Of a DNA stretch of 64,000 nucleotides, positions 1 through 8,938 are shown piece by piece. Source of the DNA: Dehalococcoidia bacterium (GTDB lineage: Bacteria; Chloroflexota; Dehalococcoidia; Plut-88900); contig CBDBLV010000003.1 in the NCBI GenBank assembly GCA_965207225.1, positions 192,001 through 256,000 on the forward strand. The letters run 5' to 3'. The notes beneath the pieces were generated by a model, which was not told where the DNA came from, searched no databases, and was given only the letters and a program-made list of their open reading frames with translations. The first letter of the stretch is position 1, and every line of letters starts with the position of its first letter. Both the position numbers and the translations under genes were made by a program.

Positions 1-112
1 AACAGGGAACCGCTTATGGGGCTGATTCTACCAGACGTGCGGTCGAGCAACAAAAGAAGGTGTGGAGGTTTCATTTTGTGTCGGGGCGGGATACCCTACG
101 CCCGGAGGATTT

Positions 113-913
113 ATGCCTGTACTGAGCAAGAGCCGTGAGGGTCGTAAAGAGATAATCGGCGTCGTGCACCTGCTGCCGCTCCCCGGGAGTCCCGGCTGGA
201 AGGGAGACCTTGACGTTGTCGTGGAGCACGCCTTAAGGGACACCGAGGCCCTCGCCCGCGGCGGCATCGACGCCGTGATATTCGAGAACTTCGGCGACGT
301 TCCTTTCCTGCGCGGGCCCCTGCCTCCCGAGACCATCGCAGCCATGGCAGTGGTGATCGAGGGTGTGGCCAACAACGTCGAAGTTCCCTTCGGGGTGAAC
401 GTCCTGCGCAACGACCCCATCGCTGCCCTCGGCCTGGCCTATGCAACAGGTGGCGAGTTCATAAGGGTCAATGTTCACACCGGCGTAATGGTCACCGACC
501 AGGGGATCATCGAGGGTCGGGCCGAGGATACAGTGAGGAGAAGAACTGCACTGTCAGCACCCGTCAAGCTCCTCGCAGATGTCCTGGTGAAGCACGCCGT
601 GCCCCTGGGAGAACAGGACATCCGGGACGCTGCAAAAGCCGCTGTTTACAGGGGAATGGCCAATGCGCTGATAGTGACGGGGCCTTTTACGGGGAAAGAG
701 GCCGACCTATCGGACGTAAAGGCGGTGAAGGAGTCGGTGCCGGAAGGCACTCCGGTGCTGGTCGGGAGCGGAATCACCGAGGCCAATATCGGGAGCTACC
801 TGGAGTGGGCAGACGGGGTGATTGTGGGGACAAGCCTGAAGAGGGCTAGCGTGGTATCCAATCCGGTCGATGTGGAGAGGGTGGTGAGGCTCGTGTCGGC
901 GGGGCGGGGCTAG
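113..913 (+). CDS. BtpA/SgcQ family TIM-barrel protein
   Basis: Motifs IGVVHLLPLPGSP, ENFGDVPF, GVNVLRND, FIRVN, ADVLVKH, DGVIVGT; GGAGG at 104-108 supports ATG 113. Confidence 0.9.
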   Translation: MPVLSKSREGRKEIIGVVHLLPLPGSPGWKGDLDVVVEHALRDTEALARGGIDAVIFENFGDVPFLRGPLPPETIAAMAVVIEGVANNVEVPFGVNVLRNDPIAALGLAYATGGEFIRVNVHTGVMVTDQGIIEGRAEDTVRRRTALSAPVKLLADVLVKHAVPLGEQDIRDAAKAAVYRGMANALIVTGPFTGKEADLSDVKAVKESVPEGTPVLVGSGITEANIGSYLEWADGVIVGTSLKRASVVSNPVDVERVVRLVSAGRG

Positions 914-914
914 G

Positions 915-1024
915 CAAAGGAAAAGCCCCGAGGCGCTTCAGCCTTACGGCAGTCCCGGTGGACAACCCGGGAACCTCGGGGCTCGGTGCCTGTGCGGATT
1001 CCGTAAACGGAACCCATCGGGCAC
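915..1024 (-). terminator. Branched terminator-like structure of the minus-strand small transcript
   Basis: AGCCCCGAGG (924-933)/CCTCGGGGCT (974-983) 10-bp stem enclosing two hairpins, followed by TTTCCTTT on the minus strand; additional hairpin at 986-1024. Confidence 0.55.
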
Positions 1025-1042
1025 AACATCGTGTCAAACCGT

Positions 1043-1087
1043 TTACGTTACAGACACCTCACCAGTCCGTTTATCATCTATTTCCAA
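1043..1087 (-). CDS. Putative 14-aa small ORF MEIDDKRTGEVSVT (TTG start)
   Basis: AGAAAGGAGGTGATC on the minus strand (1090-1104), with GGAGG 7 nt before TTG at 1087; TAA at 1043-1045. Confidence 0.45.
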   Translation of the reverse strand: MEIDDKRTGEVSVT

Positions 1088-1240
1088 TTGATCACCTCCT
1101 TTCTTGATGTACTTCCAATATAAGGCCATTGTGGTGAATCGCGCAATACCGGACTTGCACAAGCCGATGTGTATTGCTGAATGGGTGGGGCGGGTCTATC
1201 ATGTCGAGCAAAATTTTTCGAGCCGGGGAAGGGGCGCAAC

Positions 1241-2494
1241 ATGGACTCGGCAAACGGAGAAGCGGGATGTACCTCAGGGCCCTTGAAGGGAATTCGGGTC
1301 ATCGAGCTGGCCGTATGGCACAACGGCGGCGCTGCCGGCTACATGCTCGGAGACCTGGGTGCCGACGTCATCAAGATTGAGCAGCCCCGAGTCGGAGACC
1401 CGAGCCGGGGCGTCACCCAGGCCTTCGGCCACAACCTCGAACTGCCCGGGGGTCGGACCCTGTGGTTCGAGATGGTGAACCGGGGCAAAAGGGCCATGAC
1501 TCTCGACCTCAAGAGCCCTAAAGGCAAAGAGGTCATGCACAAGCTCATCGCCGAGGCCGACGTCTTCTTCACCAACTACACCTCGGACGTCGTCGAACGT
1601 CTGGGTGCCGACTACGAGACCCTCTCCGCCATCAATCCCCGGCTCGTCTGGGCCATAAACACCGCCTACGGCACCCGGGGCCCGCTGGCCAACAAGCACG
1701 GCTACGACTCATCCATCCAGGCCCACACCGGCTATGCCTATCGCATGGGCAACGCCGAGGGCGGGGACCCCATAATCGTCGGGGGCGGCACCTTCGACCA
1801 GTTGGGCGCAACGATGCTGGTCTACGGCATCATGGCCGCGCTGATAGCCAGGGAGAAGCAGGGCGTCGGGCAGGCGGTGGAAGCCTCGATGCTGGGCAGC
1901 TCCGTACACCTGCAGCACGACAACTTCCACATGTACCTCTGGAAGAACGATTCGACCTTCGGAACATCCCCACGGGCTTCACTGGACCCCTTCGTAAACT
2001 GGTACAGGTGCGCTGACGGCAAATGGATCATGCTCAACGAGCCCCATCCCGAGAGGGTCTGGGAAGCGTTCTGCTCCACCATGGGGCTGGACAGGTATGT
2101 GGACGACCCCCGCTTCGACACCCTCGCCGTAAGGCTGGAAAACGCGGCGGCCTTCAGGGACATCCTGATCGAGACCTTCGGGTCTAGACCCAGGCAAACG
2201 TGGACCGACCTGTTCACCAAAAGGAAGGTACGGTTCGTCTACACCCTGGTGAATACGGTGGCCGAGTCCGCCGCCGACCCCCAGGTCCTTGCCAACGAGT
2301 ACGTGGTCGAGACCCAGCACCCGACAATGGGCGCCACCAGGACCACGGGCCTGCCGATCAAGTTCTCCAGGACACCGGCGGAGGTCGGGCATGCGGCCCC
2401 CGAGTTCGGCCAGCACACGGAAGAGGTCTTGACCGAGGTGTGCGGGTATGGCTGGGAAGAGGTCGTCGAGCTGCGGGAGTCGGGCGTGGTCTAG
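1241..2494 (+). CDS. Class III CoA-transferase (CaiB/BaiF family)
   Basis: PLKGIRVIEL, LGDLGADVIKIE, NRGKRAMTLDLK, ADVFFTNY, APEFGQHTEEVL; start inferred at ATG 1241. Confidence 0.92.
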   Translation: MDSANGEAGCTSGPLKGIRVIELAVWHNGGAAGYMLGDLGADVIKIEQPRVGDPSRGVTQAFGHNLELPGGRTLWFEMVNRGKRAMTLDLKSPKGKEVMHKLIAEADVFFTNYTSDVVERLGADYETLSAINPRLVWAINTAYGTRGPLANKHGYDSSIQAHTGYAYRMGNAEGGDPIIVGGGTFDQLGATMLVYGIMAALIAREKQGVGQAVEASMLGSSVHLQHDNFHMYLWKNDSTFGTSPRASLDPFVNWYRCADGKWIMLNEPHPERVWEAFCSTMGLDRYVDDPRFDTLAVRLENAAAFRDILIETFGSRPRQTWTDLFTKRKVRFVYTLVNTVAESAADPQVLANEYVVETQHPTMGATRTTGLPIKFSRTPAEVGHAAPEFGQHTEEVLTEVCGYGWEEVVELRESGVV

Positions 2495-2506
2495 CCTGCG
2501 CTTATA

Positions 2507-3787
2507 ATGGCTGCCAGTACTATGGCAGCCATATCCCGGGAAACCTCCCACCAGCGTCCCCCCGCCGAGGATCCGATACCGCCGTACCGATGGGCGGTCA
2601 TAGGGGCCATGTCATCGGGCATTGCCACCTCCATGGCGATGCTCTTTTTCATCGGTCTCCTTCTCCCCGACATCTCCGAGGAGATGGGCCTGTCCCCAAC
2701 ACAGCAGGGTCTGGTGGGGTCCTCCGCATTGCTGGTGAACCTGGTGCTTGTTATGCCGATAAACAGCCTGATGTCCAGGTTCAGGCCCCGTCGCATGCTC
2801 ACCTTTGCCCTGCTGGTAGTCGCCGGGTCGGTGTTCATCCAAGCCCGGGCCCCGGTATTCGGGGTGCTGATTCTGGGCAGGGTTGTCCTGGCCCTCGGGA
2901 CCATGTTCACCCAGGCCCCGAGAGTCCTGCTCATCCAGCAGTGGTCCAACCGTCGCCAGATGGCCATGACCAACGGCATCCTGGTGGGAAGCGTTGACAT
3001 GATGTTCGGTGCGGTGTCATTTATGACGCCGTTCATCGTCCAGTGGTCAGGAGGGTGGAGGCGGGCGCTGGATACGTGGGGTTTTGTGTGCATTGCTCTG
3101 ATGCTGGTGTGGTTCGTAGTGGGTCGGGAGCGGGGGGCGGAGGAGCAGAGGGCCCGGGTGAAGGAGCAGGAGGGCACGCCCCTGAAGACCGTCCTGAAGT
3201 ACCGGGAGCTTTGGTATGCCAGCATAGGCCTCTTCGGAGTGGTGCTGGCGGAGATGGCCTTCAGCGTGTTCTGGCCGACCTTCGCAGAGACCCAGCTGAA
3301 CCTGTCGGCTACGATGGTCGGGGTGGCGGTCGGGATTTCGGCCATAGCCGCCGCCCCGAGCTCCATCGGCATCAACGCCGTGGCCTTCTTCAACCGCAAC
3401 AGACCCCTTGTCCTGGCTACCTGCGGGATCGCCAAGTTCATCCTCATCCTGCTGTTGCTCTACACCGAGCCCGCAGCCCTCGTAATCCTCCTGACGACGC
3501 TCAAGGGCATCTTCTCTGCCTTCTTCGCCGTGCTGATGGGCATGGTATTCTACCTGCCCAACATCAAACCCAGGGAGGTCGCCGTCGGGCAGGCGTTCCT
3601 GAGGTTGTCCATATCCACCGGCGCAGCCCTGGGGCCGATGATGGTGGGGTTCGTCCAGGAAGCGACGGGAGACCTGCGTCAGGCGCTGTTGTATACGGCC
3701 TTTGCACCGCTGGCCCTCGTCCTGACCTCGGCGCTGTTGTGGAAGCCGGGTCGGGCCTCCGGCCTCGAGCCCCGGGCCACGACCTAG
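2507..3787 (+). CDS. MFS transporter
   Basis: About 12 hydrophobic segments, YRW N-terminal motif, GGWR loop; directly downstream of the CoA-transferase. Confidence 0.85.
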   Translation: MAASTMAAISRETSHQRPPAEDPIPPYRWAVIGAMSSGIATSMAMLFFIGLLLPDISEEMGLSPTQQGLVGSSALLVNLVLVMPINSLMSRFRPRRMLTFALLVVAGSVFIQARAPVFGVLILGRVVLALGTMFTQAPRVLLIQQWSNRRQMAMTNGILVGSVDMMFGAVSFMTPFIVQWSGGWRRALDTWGFVCIALMLVWFVVGRERGAEEQRARVKEQEGTPLKTVLKYRELWYASIGLFGVVLAEMAFSVFWPTFAETQLNLSATMVGVAVGISAIAAAPSSIGINAVAFFNRNRPLVLATCGIAKFILILLLLYTEPAALVILLTTLKGIFSAFFAVLMGMVFYLPNIKPREVAVGQAFLRLSISTGAALGPMMVGFVQEATGDLRQALLYTAFAPLALVLTSALLWKPGRASGLEPRATT

Positions 3788-3869
3788 AGGAACGATGCGT
3801 AAGCCATAACTCTGACATCGTCATCATCCCCGTCCCCGTCCATGCTTAAGCGCCCCCGCCGTATTGAGG

Positions 3870-5441
3870 CTAGCCGGAGTCTGTCACCCGCTCTCCATGA
3901 AAGCTGCCCATCCCCGGCATGGTTACCGTCACCCGCTCGCTGCGTCCCGCGTCGGGCTGGAACTCCAGGACCGCTGGCCATTCCAACCAGACGAAGCTCC
4001 CGTCCTCAGTCTCCCGGACCTCCGACAGGTAGGGCGGAAACAGCTCGCCGCTCAAATCTTCTTCCCCGTTGGAGTAGAGCTTGTCTCCCCGGCGGATGAT
4101 GTCCAGGGCGGGGTGCTGACCGAGAAACCCGACTATCGAATACCGACCCACATGATTGTCGAACCGGGAGGGGTCAGGCACAGCGAATTCCCTAGACATT
4201 GACGGCGGAAGCGCCACCTCCGCTATGGAGACGGTGCGGTGGAATATCAGGCAGTCCCAGGCAAGTCCCGGCGCCTGGGGGGTATAGCGAAGATTGTGAC
4301 GTGTCATCCGCTCGGTGTTCAGCCAGTCCGCCACGGGCCCTGAGTCCGGCGCCCCACGCAGGTCCAGGAAGAAGCAGTCCGGCCCGACCTGGTCATAGGC
4401 GAAGGCGTTGGAGTCGGGTATCGGGTCTTCGCCCTTGACGGAGTAGGTGCAGGAAACGCCGATGTACAGCAGCTTTTCCCTGCCTATACGATTTGCAGCG
4501 TAGGAACCCATGGAGGTCCCTTTCTGGATTCGCACCGGGTACAGCTGCAGGTGGCTGTTGTGGGCCCCGACAACCATCCGGGCCCCGGGGCCTTCACGTT
4601 TCAGGATCCATTCCAGGGAACAGGCCATGGAGACGTCGCGGGTATTCCAGAAGGCCCGGAACCCGTCGTCGGAATCGAGGTCCCCGGTCTGGGCCAGGGT
4701 CAGGAACAGGTCGCGTAAGATCTCTGCACTCCTCAACGCCCATTCGTAGTCGTCCTGTGAACTGGCCTCGATGTAAGCCAGCCTGCGTTGTTCGATCAGG
4801 TTCACAACCAGGGTCGATTCCGCGATGAGCCTGCGCCAGGTTTCTTCTTCAACGTCGCCCCGATTGTCAAAATTGATGCCTCGGACCGGCCCTCCAAAAA
4901 TAGTCTCCACTTGGTCGGCAAGACCGTCATCCACCTTGCGGCCAAATTCCACCACCGCATTGAAAGCGTGCCGTGCATGGAACCAATTCCCGGAGCCGTC
5001 CATCCCGTAGAAGCGCAGTTCCCGGTCACGGTCGGGGTTGGCGTTGTAGTCCCTCATCCACTGGATAAGCTCCTGGAGCTCCGCCCATATCCCCCAGGCA
5101 TTGGTCACCGAGTTGACCACCGTATCCCAGTCGACATCCGCCCCAGCCACGTATTCGTGGATTGCACGGCTTTCAACCAGCCCCGACTCCAGCACGAAAG
5201 TGTTGAATCCGTGCTCTTCGACAAGGTACTTGAACACACGCGCACGGATGCGGTTCCATTCGTGCAGGTAGTGGGCGTTCTCGCCGATTGCTACGATGCG
5301 GGCGTCCCCGACCACCTCCCCCAGGAACCCCAGATCGTCATAGTTCTCATCATGCCGGGGAATGGAGAGGGGAATGGCCTCGCCCCGCGCCCAGGCTATG
5401 AAGGGTCCTGCGTCGACCGCCGTGTTCTTTTCATCGGCCAT
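3870..5441 (-). CDS. Erythromycin esterase (EreA/B-like) family protein with C-terminal extension
   Basis: ARIVAIGENAH, LVEEHGF..FVLESG, FYGMD, RD..MA, AHNSH; SD GGAGGA at 5451-5456 supports ATG 5441. Confidence 0.85.
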   Translation of the reverse strand: MADEKNTAVDAGPFIAWARGEAIPLSIPRHDENYDDLGFLGEVVGDARIVAIGENAHYLHEWNRIRARVFKYLVEEHGFNTFVLESGLVESRAIHEYVAGADVDWDTVVNSVTNAWGIWAELQELIQWMRDYNANPDRDRELRFYGMDGSGNWFHARHAFNAVVEFGRKVDDGLADQVETIFGGPVRGINFDNRGDVEEETWRRLIAESTLVVNLIEQRRLAYIEASSQDDYEWALRSAEILRDLFLTLAQTGDLDSDDGFRAFWNTRDVSMACSLEWILKREGPGARMVVGAHNSHLQLYPVRIQKGTSMGSYAANRIGREKLLYIGVSCTYSVKGEDPIPDSNAFAYDQVGPDCFFLDLRGAPDSGPVADWLNTERMTRHNLRYTPQAPGLAWDCLIFHRTVSIAEVALPPSMSREFAVPDPSRFDNHVGRYSIVGFLGQHPALDIIRRGDKLYSNGEEDLSGELFPPYLSEVRETEDGSFVWLEWPAVLEFQPDAGRSERVTVTMPGMGSFHGERVTDSG

Positions 5442-5570
5442 AATCGGGTGTCCTCCTTCGATGTTATCCGAGAGTATACGGGTTAACGATAATCCCAGGT
5501 TATCGGAAGCTCCATTGGGGTAAAGTACGTTGAGCCGCGACTCCCGGGCCATAACGCAGGGATAAGGTGC

Positions 5571-6215
5571 ATGAGCAGACAGACAGGAGACCCCTTCCGC
5601 CCCGAGTACTTCAGGAGAGAGGACGAAAGGCCCGACGTACTCTTCTACGCCGAACCCCGCCTTGTAGTCCACATAGACGCACACGCCATCCGGGCCATAG
5701 GGGACTACCTGTCAGAGACCCTGCCCTCCGGGGGCGTGATACTGGACCTGATGAGCAGCTGGAGGTCCCACTTGCCGGAGGACCAGGCGAGAGGGAAGGT
5801 GGTCGGGCTTGGGCTCAACGGCGTTGAGATGAACGAAAACCCCCAATTGGACGACGCCGTAGTCCACGACCTTAACGCCAGTCCTGCCTTGCCCTTTCGA
5901 GATGCGACCTTTGATGCTGCAATTCTGACGGTGTCGGTGCAGTACCTGACCAGGCCCGAACAGGTATTCGCAGAGGTGGCGAGGGTCCTGAAGCCCGGGG
6001 CCCGGTTCCACGTAATCTATTCCAACCGCATGTTCCCAACCAAGGCAACCGCCATCTGGAAAGCGCTCTCGGACGGGGACAGGGCGAAACTAATCGGGGC
6101 ATATTTCCGGCGGTCGGGGAGATGGGACGAACCCAAGGCACGGGACATCACCCCGAGAACCGGGGCCTACAATGACCCGGTGTACGTGGTTTCGGCAGCG
6201 TCAATTGACAAGTGA
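5571..6215 (+). CDS. Class I SAM-dependent methyltransferase (type 11-like)
   Basis: FYAEPRLVVHID, ILDLMSSWRSHLP, GLGLN..E, SVQYL, SNRMFPTKA. Confidence 0.88.
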   Translation: MSRQTGDPFRPEYFRREDERPDVLFYAEPRLVVHIDAHAIRAIGDYLSETLPSGGVILDLMSSWRSHLPEDQARGKVVGLGLNGVEMNENPQLDDAVVHDLNASPALPFRDATFDAAILTVSVQYLTRPEQVFAEVARVLKPGARFHVIYSNRMFPTKATAIWKALSDGDRAKLIGAYFRRSGRWDEPKARDITPRTGAYNDPVYVVSAASIDK

Positions 6216-6233
6216 CAATGGCGACTTTACATT
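6205..6233 (+). promoter_or_regulatory. Sigma70-type promoter of higBA, probably leaderless
   Basis: TTGACA (6205-6210), 17 nt, TACATT (6228-6233), then 6 nt to GTG 6240. Confidence 0.6.
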
Positions 6234-6239
6234 CTTGAT

Positions 6240-6530
6240 GTGATCCATTCTTTCAGACACAGCGGGCTCAGCGCATTCTTCAGTAAAGTGGAGAAGCAAC
6301 AGGTCTATACTGAGCATGCCAAAAGGCTAAGACGCGTCTTGACAATGCTCAACAGCAGTACGTCCATGGAGAGTCTGAATTTTCCAGGACTTCGGATTCG
6401 CCGGCTTTCGGGAAAGAAGAATGGTCATTACGCTGTGTTGGTGTGGGACAATTGGTGGATTACCTTTCGCTTTAAAGACGGAAACTTATACGATGTCGAC
6501 TACAGGACTTTCACTGTGGAGGCGATGTGA
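6240..6530 (+). CDS. higB: HigB-type toxin (plasmid maintenance system killer family)
   Basis: MIHSFRHSGL, PGLRIRRLSG, NWWITFRF..G...DVDY; overlaps the antitoxin start. Confidence 0.8.
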   Translation: MIHSFRHSGLSAFFSKVEKQQVYTEHAKRLRRVLTMLNSSTSMESLNFPGLRIRRLSGKKNGHYAVLVWDNWWITFRFKDGNLYDVDYRTFTVEAM

Positions 6531-6847
6531 TGCCGATGGCCGACCCCTGTCATCCCGGCGAGATAATTAGACACGAATGCCTGGCGCCATTGGACCTGCA
6601 CGTTAAAGGGGCGGCCAGGGAGTTGGGCGTAAGTCGGCAGGCGTTTTCGAACCTGCTCAACGCCAGGGCCGGGGTGTCGACGAGCATGGCTTTCAGATTG
6701 TCCAGGGTGTTCGGCTCTACGCCCGAGACGTGGCTCGCCATGCAGACGGCATACGACCTCTGGCAGGCGCGAGAACGGGCAAAAGAGACCAAGCCCGATG
6801 ATTTACCGGGCCCGGCGCTGCCTAGCCGGACCCCGACTCCTCCGTGA
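6527..6847 (+). CDS. higA: HigA-type antitoxin (XRE HTH)
   Basis: HPGEII, AARELGVSRQ, MAFRLSRVFGSTPETWLAMQTAYDLWQA. Confidence 0.88.
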   Translation: MMPMADPCHPGEIIRHECLAPLDLHVKGAARELGVSRQAFSNLLNARAGVSTSMAFRLSRVFGSTPETWLAMQTAYDLWQARERAKETKPDDLPGPALPSRTPTPP

Positions 6848-7493
6848 TCCCCACACTCCCCAGGGCCGCAATAATCTCTTCCCGGCTCAGAAATGCCCCG
6901 AACTTGATGTGCCGGATCACACCCTGCTCATCCAGGATGAACGTCCACGGAAGACCCGGCACCTGGTAGGAGTTCGCGACCTCGCGGCGGGTGTCGAGGA
7001 CCGTGGGCATCGTCAAGCCTAGCAGCTCCTTGTATCCCTTTACCCTCTCCGCGGACTCCCGGACGTCCACCGCCAGCACCACCAGTTCATCACCCAGCGA
7101 CTGGTGGACGCTCTCTATCTCCGGCATCTCGAAGCGGCAGGGCCCGCACCAGACCGCGAAGAAGTTGATGAAAACGGGCTTCCCCCGGTAGTCGCTGAGA
7201 ACAATGACCTCGCCCTCTTCCGTCTCAAGCCGGAAGTCCGGCGCAAGGGTCCCGACTTCCGCGCCTATGGGAAGGTCGTCGGGATTGGGTGTCTCCTTGA
7301 TGCCCAACCTCAGCGCCGACTCCGGCGTCGGGGTGGCGGTGGGGATGGGAAGGGAGGTGGGTGTAGGTCTGACGGTTGGCTCGGCAGTAGGCTCGGGGGT
7401 GGGGGTGTCCGCGGGGCTGGAACACGCTACCGCGATGAGCAGGGTGAGGGCCAGGAGGAGAAGCAGTAGTCGTATGCACCTTTTGCCGTTCAT
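6822..7493 (-). CDS. TlpA/ResA-like thiol-disulfide oxidoreductase lipoprotein
   Basis: Lipobox IAVAC, PT-rich linker, APDFRL, NFFAVWCGPCRFEMP. Confidence 0.88.
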   Translation of the reverse strand: MNGKRCIRLLLLLLALTLLIAVACSSPADTPTPEPTAEPTVRPTPTSLPIPTATPTPESALRLGIKETPNPDDLPIGAEVGTLAPDFRLETEEGEVIVLSDYRGKPVFINFFAVWCGPCRFEMPEIESVHQSLGDELVVLAVDVRESAERVKGYKELLGLTMPTVLDTRREVANSYQVPGLPWTFILDEQGVIRHIKFGAFLSREEIIAALGSVGITEESGSG

Positions 7494-7564
7494 GGTATGA
7501 GGGGTATTATAGCCCTTGACCCGAACAGAGTCCCCGAGTTACTCGCCACACAGATATTTCCACA

Positions 7565-8938
7565 ATGACGGCAACCGTAATCAAGAACACGACAATCGTG
7601 ACTGGAGGCCCGGGCAGGACCGTCCTTCACGACTCTGCGATTGGGATTGAGGATGGAAGAATCGCCGCCTTGGGCTCTTCCGATGAAGTCATCGCCCGGC
7701 TCCCGAACGCCGAGGTGATCGACGGCCGGCGAAAGGCCGTGTTCCCGGGCCTGGTGAACGCCCACACCCACCTCCTGAAGACCATCAACAAGGGCATCCT
7801 GGAAGACACGGGGTTCCCCACCACCCTCCGCTTCCCCGAAGACACCCGGGGCCTGATGGGCAAGGAGGAGGATAACATCTTCGCCGTGCTGGGGATTATC
7901 GAATCGATACGCAGCGGGGCGACCTGTGTCCTGGAGATCGAGCGGGACATCGCCAACTACGCCGACTCCCTCGCCGCCACCGGCATGAGGATGGTCCTCG
8001 CGGAATACGTCGAGGACGTGGACATGGACCTGGCCCGACAGAGCCGCTACGAGTTCATCCCAGCCAAGGCCGACGAGGGAATGCGCAAGAGCGTCGACCT
8101 CATCGAGGCCTGGCACGGCAAGGCCGAGGGCCGGGTCACGTGCATGACCTCCCCCTCCACCCCCGAGTACTGCTCGCCCGAGCTGCTGCAGGAGAATCGT
8201 CAGGTGTCGGACAGGTACGACATCGGGATGACCGTCCACCTCAGCGAAAGCTACGACGAGGTACAGGCGGTGATGCGGACAAGGGGTGTCAGGCCCACCC
8301 AGTACCTCTACGTCAACGGCGCCCTGGGCCCGAGGGTCGTGGCGGCCCACTGCCGGTACCTGGACCAGTCGGAAATCGCCCTTGCCGGACAGACCCGCAC
8401 CAACGTCTCCTTCAACCCGGCCATCGCCGCCCGGCGAGGCGCAGCAGCCCCGGCCACGGAGCTGGATGCGGCGGGATGCAACATGGGCATGGGCTCCGAC
8501 AACATGGACGAAAACATGCTCCACGTAATGCGCACCGGCCTCTTCGCCGAGCGCGTGCGCCGCCACACGCCCATGTCGCCCCAGCCCGAGCAGATGCTGG
8601 AGTGGGCCACTATCGGCAGCGCCCGGGCCCTGGGCTTGGGGGACGAGGTTGGAAGCCTGGAGGTCGGCAAGAAGGCCGACCTCTTTATGATAGACACCAT
8701 GCGGCCCCATCTCGTGCCCAACCACCGCATAGTGTCGGCCTTCATCCACAACGGCCAGGCCGACGACATAGAAGCCGTGATGGTGGACGGGAATTGGTTG
8801 ATGAGGGATGGGAAGCTCTTGACCATCGACGAGGAGGACGTCGTGGCCCGGGCCGAGGAGATGGGCCAGGCAGTCTGGCGCCGGCTCCTCGATCGAAATC
8901 CCTCGGTCCACTTCCCCTTTGCGCTTCCCCCTCGGTAG
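7565..8938 (+). CDS. Metal-dependent amidohydrolase (MTA/SAH deaminase/AtzB-like)
   Basis: PGLVNAHTH, VHLSES, AHC, GSDN, GSLEVGKKADL. Confidence 0.9.
   Translation: MTATVIKNTTIVTGGPGRTVLHDSAIGIEDGRIAALGSSDEVIARLPNAEVIDGRRKAVFPGLVNAHTHLLKTINKGILEDTGFPTTLRFPEDTRGLMGKEEDNIFAVLGIIESIRSGATCVLEIERDIANYADSLAATGMRMVLAEYVEDVDMDLARQSRYEFIPAKADEGMRKSVDLIEAWHGKAEGRVTCMTSPSTPEYCSPELLQENRQVSDRYDIGMTVHLSESYDEVQAVMRTRGVRPTQYLYVNGALGPRVVAAHCRYLDQSEIALAGQTRTNVSFNPAIAARRGAAAPATELDAAGCNMGMGSDNMDENMLHVMRTGLFAERVRRHTPMSPQPEQMLEWATIGSARALGLGDEVGSLEVGKKADLFMIDTMRPHLVPNHRIVSAFIHNGQADDIEAVMVDGNWLMRDGKLLTIDEEDVVARAEEMGQAVWRRLLDRNPSVHFPFALPPR

Follow-up and report, generated by a model that had tools for sequence, protein, structure and literature searches.

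The 64,000-nucleotide (nt) stretch of DNA analysed here (the window; positions 192,001 to 256,000 of contig CBDBLV010000003.1 from a Dehalococcoidia bacterium) contains on its minus strand a short element that is, almost certainly, a member of the Ms_IGR-5 family of RNAs (Rfam RF02471). The explanation that accounts best for this element, to which we give a probability of about 0.5, is that of a free-standing structured-RNA gene of ∼195 nt, lying between two unrelated genes, in which the engagement of ribosomes matters and the encoded peptide does not.

The covariance model of RF02471 matches positions 917–1110 of the minus strand over its full length (model positions 1–184 of 184) with a score of 55 bits (E = 2e-10), only 10 bits over the gathering score of 45; Rfam lists the family as 'Actinobacteria sRNA' (sRNA, small RNA), and the model was trained on actinobacteria. 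The family is said to have been originally reported by Li et al. in 2013. A search of the whole 4.03-Mb assembly returned the site in the window as the sole RF02471 copy, with the same score. An earlier note on this DNA, made from the sequence alone, had described the unit as novel, and that claim does not stand: the Rfam search gave a known family, which is the outcome that the note itself had named as refuting it. The locus extends the catalogued family to Dehalococcoidia as a host class and by a subtype that NC10 bacteria also carry; the unit itself is not new. The coordinates of every part described in the note were correct on re-checking, and the element is, as proposed there, a self-contained minus-strand unit (∼195 nt) with its own promoter-like boxes, a maximal Shine-Dalgarno (SD) sequence, an open reading frame (ORF) and a branched terminal stem.

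The order of parts is that of other Ms_IGR-5 members, with an 'ACAC' 5' end, an extended SD, a mini-ORF ending in ...TxEVxxx-stop and a helix (P2) that holds the stop codon, followed by a linker ending in ...CAGnCACC and then by the 3' domain, one loop of which carries GUCC. The element differs from them in its host, which is a Dehalococcoidia bacterium and not an actinobacterium, in a start codon 7 nt past GGAGG (10–12 nt in Ms_IGR-5) and a frame of 14 rather than 12 codons, and in a 3' domain that is enlarged by a third hairpin and followed by a U-rich tail.

Extended Shine-Dalgarno sequence and mini-ORF

The plus strand at 1090–1104 reads GATCACCTCCTTTCT and the minus strand accordingly AGAAAGGAGGTGATC. 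The 16S ribosomal RNA (rRNA) gene of the host genome ends in ...GGATCACCTCCTTTCT, so that the SD of the element is a perfect 15-nt complement of the tail of its own 16S rRNA, which bears out the earlier note's description of a maximal SD. The computed duplex between SD and tail has an energy of -25.1 kcal/mol, as against -8.7 kcal/mol for GGAGG alone. When all GGAGG sites of the 4.03-Mb genome were compared, the 15-nt match was found at two places, the element and the antisense strand of the 16S gene, and the next-longest matches to the 16S tail were of 12 nt (one site) and 11 nt (11 sites). The possibility that the plus strand at 1090–1104 is itself the 3' end of a 16S gene was rejected; no rRNA or transfer RNA match was found in window positions 1–8000, and the 16S gene of this genome sits on a different contig. 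Downstream of the SD core GGAGG (1099–1095), a spacer of 7 nt leads to the TTG start codon (1087–1085); this spacing and the 14-codon frame were re-read in the sequence as the note had given them, and start, frame and stop are kept in relatives. The flank of the SD varies between groups. In actinobacterial copies (e.g. L213:1497-1715) the 3' flank of the SD is GGUGGUCC, in which GUCC could pair with the GGAC of the ORF and so enclose the start codon; in the bacterial family to which the host belongs the flank is GAUCAA, and such a hairpin between SD flank and GGAC is impossible.

The mini-ORF translates as M/L-EIDDKRTGEVSVT. A sample of 46 copies collected with the covariance model, with no motif imposed and with L235 and L245 from unpublished genomes among them, had AUG, GUG, UUG or CUG as a start downstream of the SD in 45, the exception being L242, and the frames of these 45 have 12–16 codons and end in ...(T/P)-x-E-V-x-x-x-stop. 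A second set of 117 loci was fetched by a pattern that left unconstrained the region from the SD to GGAC and the region after GAGGUG (L038, from the unpublished genome G188, was excluded from this frame test). The frame containing Glu-Val had a start and was open in 116 of these loci, compared with 15 and 0 for the two control frames, and the stop codon lay exactly three codons past GUG in 116 of 116 (UAG in 101, UGA in 8 and UAA in 7). Among the 12 copies of the host's bacterial family the frame is likewise kept, with insertions and deletions in threes, to give the peptide variants MEIDDKRTGEVSVT, MEIDKRTCEVSAT and MKVDDSKRTREVLVT.

The product of this frame is far more variable than the frame. 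Codons 2–4 specify 13–16 different residues per position over 99 distinct ORFs, and their third-position entropy (0.9, 1.6 and 1.7 bits) is not above that of the first and second positions (1.4–1.8 bits). In their N-terminal halves the peptides of Dehalococcoidia (MEIDDKR), of NC10 (VGILHW or VRIPLAIW) and of actinobacteria bear no relation to one another. At the C-terminal end, Glu-Val is encoded as GAG GUG in all 46 of the model-based copies shown and never by synonymous codons, which points to a constraint at the nucleotide level, and the Thr codon varies at its third base in concert with a loop base of the 3' domain. From these comparisons, the peptide sequence appears to be under no selection of its own and to vary wherever RNA pairing leaves it free. 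A conserved frame and stop combined with a variable peptide place the constraint on ribosome docking, on an open frame and on the position of the stop, together with an RNA-level constraint on the 3' half. Translation or ribosome loading is thus quite likely to be the selected feature. The joint conservation of SD, peptide and stems had been put forward in the earlier note as a check on its proposal: SD, frame and structure are indeed kept together in relatives, and the peptide is not. The same note had held that the peptide does not resemble type I toxins, and we agree, MEIDDKRTGEVSVT being short and charged; a type I toxin-antitoxin system was accordingly rejected as a candidate, there being also no overlapping antisense feature seen. 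An Rfam match on the opposite strand of the 3' stem of a homologue is a sub-threshold palindrome.

RNA fold and ends of the element

Pairings were assessed on a structure-blind MAFFT alignment of 131 non-redundant copies, with a second counting on an alignment of 42 sequences; both leave aside L216, L235 and L245, which come from unpublished genomes, and L030, whose coordinates are doubtful. Over the 42 sequences, the overall fold had 75.1% of its cells paired, compared with at most 47.2% when the strands were slid, and its covariation score of 0.272 compares with at most 0.108 for slid strands and was reached in none of 500 shuffles.

Two elements of the fold, both overlooked in the earlier note, tie the 3' half of the ORF to the rest of the molecule. 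The long-range helix P1 (GGUGnCUGn with nCAGnCACC) was paired in 94.7% of cells over 131 sequences, against at most 61% when slid, with compensating pair types at several positions, and in 89.2% over 42 sequences, with changes on both sides at five of its nine pairs. The pseudoknot, between GGAC in the ORF and GUCC in the 3' domain, was 85.7% paired over 42 sequences with changes on both sides at three of five pairs. Its core is near-invariant, single copies carrying the compensated cores CGAC/GUCG or AGAC/GUCU, and its fifth pair, between the third base of the Thr codon and a loop base, is GC in 28, UA in 25, AU in 15 and CG in 15 of 129 copies; in the window itself this fifth position is a U-U mismatch. 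P2 was 72.5% paired in the register of the Rfam model (at most 47.5% slid) and only 46.3% in the register that forms in the window, as counted on the 42-sequence MAFFT alignment.

The 3' domain is a three-way junction, as the earlier note had drawn it. Its closing stem P3 (10 base pairs, 983–974 with 933–924) was paired in 84.9% of cells over 131 sequences and 81.9% over 42, with many changes on both sides. P3a is a 6-base-pair hairpin (972–967 with 958–953; 72.2% paired over 42 sequences) whose loop GUUGUCCA (966–959) holds the pseudoknot strand GUCC at 963–960, and P3b is the hairpin GCC-GUAA-GGC at 950–941. Changes in the P3b stem compensate one another across the 12 family copies when compared by eye (GGCC/GGCC, GGUC/GACC and GAUC/GAUC). 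The junction is thus present in the minimum-energy fold and its closing stem covaries; the GNRA loop to which the note had drawn attention is not conserved, GUAA being limited to a few copies and replaced in others by AUA, AAUA, GCAA, UUA or AAG.

Two local hairpins described in the same note, at 1031–1057 and 986–1024, can form, the first with recurrent counterparts in other copies; they are not conserved pairings, and P1, P2 and the pseudoknot are favoured over them. The first nevertheless has a counterpart at the level of the family, in that P2 contains, in 57 of 119 copies, a stretch of 5 nt or more that is complementary to GAGGUGnnn, compared with 30.5 ± 4.4 (maximum 41) in dinucleotide shuffles; CACC occurs there in 67 of 119 copies (35.1 expected from shuffles) and CACCU in 21 (4.8 expected). 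This suggests that the ORF segment may have two alternative partners, P1 and a local decoy. Stem 1 of the Rfam model, in which the 3' half of the SD pairs with gCUGcc, has three non-standard pairs out of six in the window and is not formed. Family-wide it is 90.7% paired, with 81.9% still paired when slid by 3, and it shows one-sided changes only. On these counts stem 1 appears weak, and it is mutually exclusive with the better-supported P1, which calls into question the annotation of the model more than the membership of the element.

The ends of the element are marked by promoter-like boxes and a U/C-rich tail. The promoter TTGCGC-18-TATATT that the earlier note had considered plausible has both of its boxes and its spacer in place, and these recur, counted by eye on an alignment of the 12 family copies, as the same -35-like hexamer in 10 and as TATA(T/G)T in 11 of them, at constant positions with a spacer of variable sequence; a generic scan did not recognize it (see below). 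Actinobacterial copies have a similar TAnnnT box ahead of their 'ACAC' 5' end. At the other end, the U/C-rich tail and P3 are likely to form the terminator. In the minimum-energy fold this tail (UUUUCCUUU, 915–924) pairs with the 5' half of the SD (1096–1104), which is purine-rich, and many actinobacterial copies terminate in CUCC- or UUCC-like strings. The modelled pairing between tail and SD may be a self-masking of the SD that gates docking, or may merely reflect a terminator tail.

Features of the element, with positions in the window; all lie on the minus strand
Feature	Positions	Strand	Remarks
Predicted transcript, ∼195 nt	915–1110	-	RF02471 match at 917–1110; 5' end inferred from the -10 box
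-35-like box TTGCGC	1141–1146	-	From sequence; same hexamer at the same place in 10/12 family copies
-10-like box TATATT	1117–1122	-	18-nt spacer after the -35-like box; TATA(T/G)T in 11/12 family copies
Extended SD AGAAAGGAGGUGAUC	1090–1104	-	Complement of the entire free 16S 3' tail; core invariant in all copies examined
Mini-ORF	1043–1087	-	UUG start 1087–1085, 14 sense codons, UAA stop 1045–1043; peptide MEIDDKRTGEVSVT
Pseudoknot 5' strand GGAC	1065–1068	-	Arg-Thr codons in the ORF; pairs with GUCC 963–960
Internal SD-like GAGGUG	1055–1060	-	Glu-Val codons; 9 nt ahead of the stop codon
P1 5' strand GGUGUCUGU	1050–1058	-	3' half of the ORF; pairs with 993–985; in the minimum-energy fold
P2 5' strand CGUAAACGG	1039–1047	-	Contains the stop codon; 9 base pairs with 1010–1002 in the window
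GACAC	1031–1035	-	Local alternative partner of GUGUC (1057–1053); hairpin around the stop codon; mutually exclusive with P1
P2 3' strand CCGUUUACG	1002–1010	-	Partner of 1047–1039
P1 3' strand ACAGGCACC	985–993	-	Linker ahead of the 3' domain
3' domain, three-way junction	924–983	-	P3, P3a and P3b; in the minimum-energy fold
U/C-rich tail UUUUCCUUUG	915–924	-	From sequence; U/C-rich tails in 12/12 family copies

Proposed ribosome engagement and competing explanations

Contigs from relatives, which are weak evidence of expression, were found in four metatranscriptome runs from three studies, each with one contig on the element at 88–99% likeness. A 152-nt contig covers 955–1093, a 165-nt contig lies wholly within 929–1092, and the first 71 nt of two longer contigs match 1030–1100, beyond which these contigs diverge, as would the copy of a relative. 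Positions 880–928, the part of 1101–1180 past 1100 and the flanking genes had no contig on them, gaps that carry no weight in view of the way contigs are assembled. For actinobacterial members, published reports list Ms_IGR-5 as validated by RNA-seq in Streptomyces lividans (SLIV_16488), as an sRNA transcription unit in S. avermitilis and as ncMSMEG15794c in Mycobacterium smegmatis. The homologues in M. abscessus and M. smegmatis have significant ribosome reads according to the M. abscessus paper, in whose supplement (file 2, sheet 4) ncMab10731 (Ms_IGR-5) is given 70.3 reads per kilobase per million (RPKM) by RNA-seq and 3736.6 RPKM by ribosome profiling, a ratio of 53; the nine other non-coding RNA (ncRNA) rows looked at in that supplement have footprint/RNA ratios of at most 1.8. 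The transcription start site given there for ncMab10731 lies 2 nt ahead of the Rfam match, which fits the predicted 5' end of the element in the window. A description of the extended SD, mini-ORF, pseudoknot or function was not found in the literature, a part of which was represented by titles and the openings of abstracts and which did not extend to the original family report; likewise, the text available from a mycobacterial sRNA review does not contain 'IGR', and with the terms searched nothing pertinent turned up in two papers on mycobacterial translatomes.

The 3' half of the ORF belongs to the fold, with GGAC in the pseudoknot, GGUGUCUGU in P1 or paired with the decoy and the stop codon in P2, so that translation and folding would be mutually exclusive. 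In the mechanism that we propose, a short leader would expose the maximal SD, on which a ribosome would dock and start at UUG. The first codons, which are A/U-rich, would be unstructured, and from codon 7 onward the ribosome would open the pseudoknot, then P1 and then P2, to terminate inside P2, at a stop codon that GAGGUG precedes by 9 nt. Given a peptide that varies freely and neighbouring genes that are not conserved, we take ribosome engagement itself as the function. The RNA might, for example, sense or buffer free ribosomes, or be remodelled by the ribosome in the role of a switch. That its function is exerted through ribosome engagement rather than through the peptide or the targeting of mRNAs falls just short of an even chance in our estimate. 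Of the three functions that the earlier note had offered (a micro-peptide gene, a ribosome-sequestering sRNA or a dual-function RNA), the evidence thus favours an RNA acting through ribosome engagement, and the micro-peptide gene is disfavoured by a peptide that varies freely.

Several observations weigh against this explanation. The folding energy of the whole RNA is modestly better than that of shuffles (z = -2.26), two of 200 of which fold as well, and the shuffle control for covariation overstates significance because the sequences are related, the slide control being fairer. The pattern-based loci had been selected for GGAC and GUGAGGUG. Within 700–1400, a generic sigma-70 promoter scan and a simple terminator scan both gave no sites; the first is blind here because the -35 box matches in only three of six positions, and the second misses the 3' stem because that stem is branched. 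The SD has a mean unpaired probability of 0.29 in the computed fold of the isolated RNA, so that docking may be regulated or hindered. The metatranscriptome contigs carry no information on strand, ends or abundance, and could stem from carried-over DNA; transcription and translation in the Dehalococcoidia host are what we infer rather than what was directly observed. The footprint density in M. abscessus could in part represent RNA that co-purifies with ribosomes, or protection of the SD, and not elongation. A role as a sponge, finally, would need copy numbers near those of ribosomes.

Among the alternatives, a conventional trans-acting base-pairing sRNA is the least easily set aside, and we consider it unlikely. 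The mini-ORF and SD would then tune stability or the availability of a seed, translation exposing the loop with GUCC or the linker with CACC. The family has been treated as an sRNA since its first description, in Rfam as in published reports, it has conserved single-stranded stretches (the linker GAAUCC...CAGnCACC and the loop uuGUCCa), and a translation-dependent exposure of these follows from the pairings found. The most conserved loop sequence, GUCC, however, already has a covarying partner within the molecule, and a maximal SD with start, frame and stop conserved over several phyla seems excessive for the tuning of stability. A micro-protein gene, in which a peptide of 12–16 residues with the core ...T-x-E-V-x-x-x is functional and the RNA structure secondary, is improbable. 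The conserved open frame, start and stop, the C-terminal T-x-E-V motif common to several phyla and the heavy ribosome footprints of a homologue would all be expected of such a gene, but the residues that are conserved are those where the RNA pairs, and the constraint on them acts on the nucleotides, with GAG GUG only and a covarying third base of Thr, whereas the unpaired N-terminal codons lack an excess of third-position variation, accept 13–16 residues each and encode unrelated halves in Dehalococcoidia, NC10 and actinobacteria.

It is very improbable that the element acts in cis on a neighbour, either as a leader or attenuator or as a bidirectional terminator for the convergent BtpA gene. 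The 3' stem lies 4–11 nt beyond the BtpA stop codon (911–913) and could also halt plus-strand transcription; against this, the element has its own promoter-like boxes, no co-oriented gene follows it, and it is conserved next to neighbours that change from one genus or phylum to another. That an SD-like string, a short ORF and hairpins came together in a spacer by chance can be regarded as refuted: short ORFs and hairpins are common in spacers and the folding z-score is modest, but chance does not account for the Rfam match, for a 15-mer that is unique in the genome apart from the 16S gene, for covarying pairings, or for the conservation of all parts in 12 of 12 family genomes and in other phyla.

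The structured RNA that engages ribosomes, as favoured here, shares features with several known systems. Dual-function sRNAs with a small ORF are known, as in SgrS/SgrT, RNAIII/hld and SR1/SR1P. A further case, rnTrpL with its peptide peTrpL, is reported to derive from an attenuator (PMC6614838). All of these are, like the element, small and separately terminated RNAs that are both structured and (here putatively) translated; they have a functional peptide and mapped mRNA targets, whereas the peptide here lacks selection of its own. 6S RNA is a mimic that occupies RNA polymerase, and a short product is made from it. The likeness is one of analogy only, a stable structured RNA presenting the ideal substrate of a machine, which here would be an ideal translation start; the machine is another, and there is no relation in sequence or structure. 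The recoding sites of prfB and dnaX combine an SD-like sequence inside an ORF with a downstream structure. The internal GAGGUG 9 nt ahead of the stop, and a pseudoknot or helix that lies ahead of the ribosome as it translates, recall this arrangement, but the element has no slippery sequence, its codons 2–4 are variable and no extended alternative frame is conserved.

On its own the locus in the window is ordinary, a catalogued sRNA family overlooked by annotation. The family as a whole is an under-studied puzzle, present as one copy per genome in distant phyla and carrying the strongest ribosome-binding site of the genome, with a reading frame whose position is conserved and whose product is not, and with the highest footprint/RNA ratio among the ncRNA rows looked at in M. 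abscessus. Rather doubtfully, Ms_IGR-5 and its relatives might be proposed to form a multi-phylum class of 'ribosome-docking' RNAs, of Actinomycetota, one Dehalococcoidia family, Methylomirabilota and probably Acidobacteriota, that reads or buffers free ribosomes. Every member would be a stable structured RNA, paired with the whole free 16S tail and translated across its pseudoknotted core. Were this true, the class would do for translation what 6S RNA does for transcription; the mini-peptide would be a by-product, and the choice between P1 and the local anti-SD-like decoy would be the switch.

Distribution and genomic context

The element was found throughout the bacterial family of its host, with one copy over the Rfam cut-off in each of 12 genomes (that of the window and 11 others); 29 further genomes, each from a different other family of the class, had no copy over it. 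Among 151 sampled genomes of the phylum Chloroflexota only that of the window was over the cut-off, and among 151 of Actinomycetota, a tally that includes the unpublished genomes G208 (L235), G238 (L245), G310 and G191, 44 matched at E ≤ 0.001 and 20 were over the cut-off. Outside the sampled genomes, the distribution rests on the actinobacteria-trained Rfam model and on exact patterns. A motif combining the SD with the core of the ORF gave at least 119 loci, and among the matches listed all but two were labelled Actinomycetota; the two exceptions, metagenome-assembled genomes (MAGs) of Methylomirabilis and of Polarisedimenticolia, scored 67.7 and 51.6 bits on RF02471, the Polarisedimenticolia copy (L038/L216) resting on the unpublished genome G188.

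A motif specific to the subtype of the window returned 38 loci, of which 22 were labelled Methylomirabilota/NC10, nine Dehalococcoidia, five unclassified, one 'Nitrospinota' and one 'Patescibacteria', as counted by record label, which can be wrong for MAGs. The NC10 copies are of exactly the subtype of the window, with AGAAAGGAGGUGAUC, a start 7 nt past GGAGG and ...GUGAGGUGnnUGUAACGUAR; they differ from it in the N-terminal half of the ORF (VGILHW... or VRIPLAIW... versus MEIDDKR...), in a GUG rather than UUG start and in a length of 13 or 15 codons. With copies in Dehalococcoidia and NC10, the label 'Actinobacteria sRNA' is too narrow, and these copies supply divergent sequences that sharpen the structural model. 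A loose motif run over 401 Dehalococcoidia genomes (including the unpublished G532) matched 189, about as many as its reversed control, and is uninformative on distribution.

The element lies on the minus strand between two plus-strand genes. On one side a BtpA-family gene (PF03437), with its stop codon at 911–913, converges on the element, and on the other a CoA-transferase III gene (PF02515) starts at 1181 and diverges from it; a neighbouring gene has its closest named relatives in Dehalococcoidia MAGs. By clustering of the flanking genes, neighbours are conserved only within genera and none across taxa. No co-oriented gene lies downstream next to the element, which speaks against a leader-peptide attenuator.

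Three further observations were made during the searches. The one other match among the 151 sampled Chloroflexota genomes was weak (27.2 bits on RF02471; L212:1501-1635, genome G169); it has AAAGGAGGUGGUG, an AUG and a 15-codon frame ending in ...HEVSA-stop, with no GGAC, and lies ∼670 nt upstream of the transfer-messenger RNA gene of that genome (L212:2303-2678). This match may reflect a strongly diverged relative, or chance. In a single NC10 MAG an element with the same mini-ORF occurs on two contigs (L260 and L270), elsewhere there being one copy per genome, and this pair may be a duplicate, a strain mixture or a split in the assembly. The loose motif search also brought up a recurring 31-nt string, GGAGGTGATCGA(A/G)CC(T/G)CGGTTGGTCGAGGTG, in several genomes of another family (Dehalococcoidia G645, G597 and G520; loci L286, L287 and L293, respectively), which is probably part of a conserved gene.

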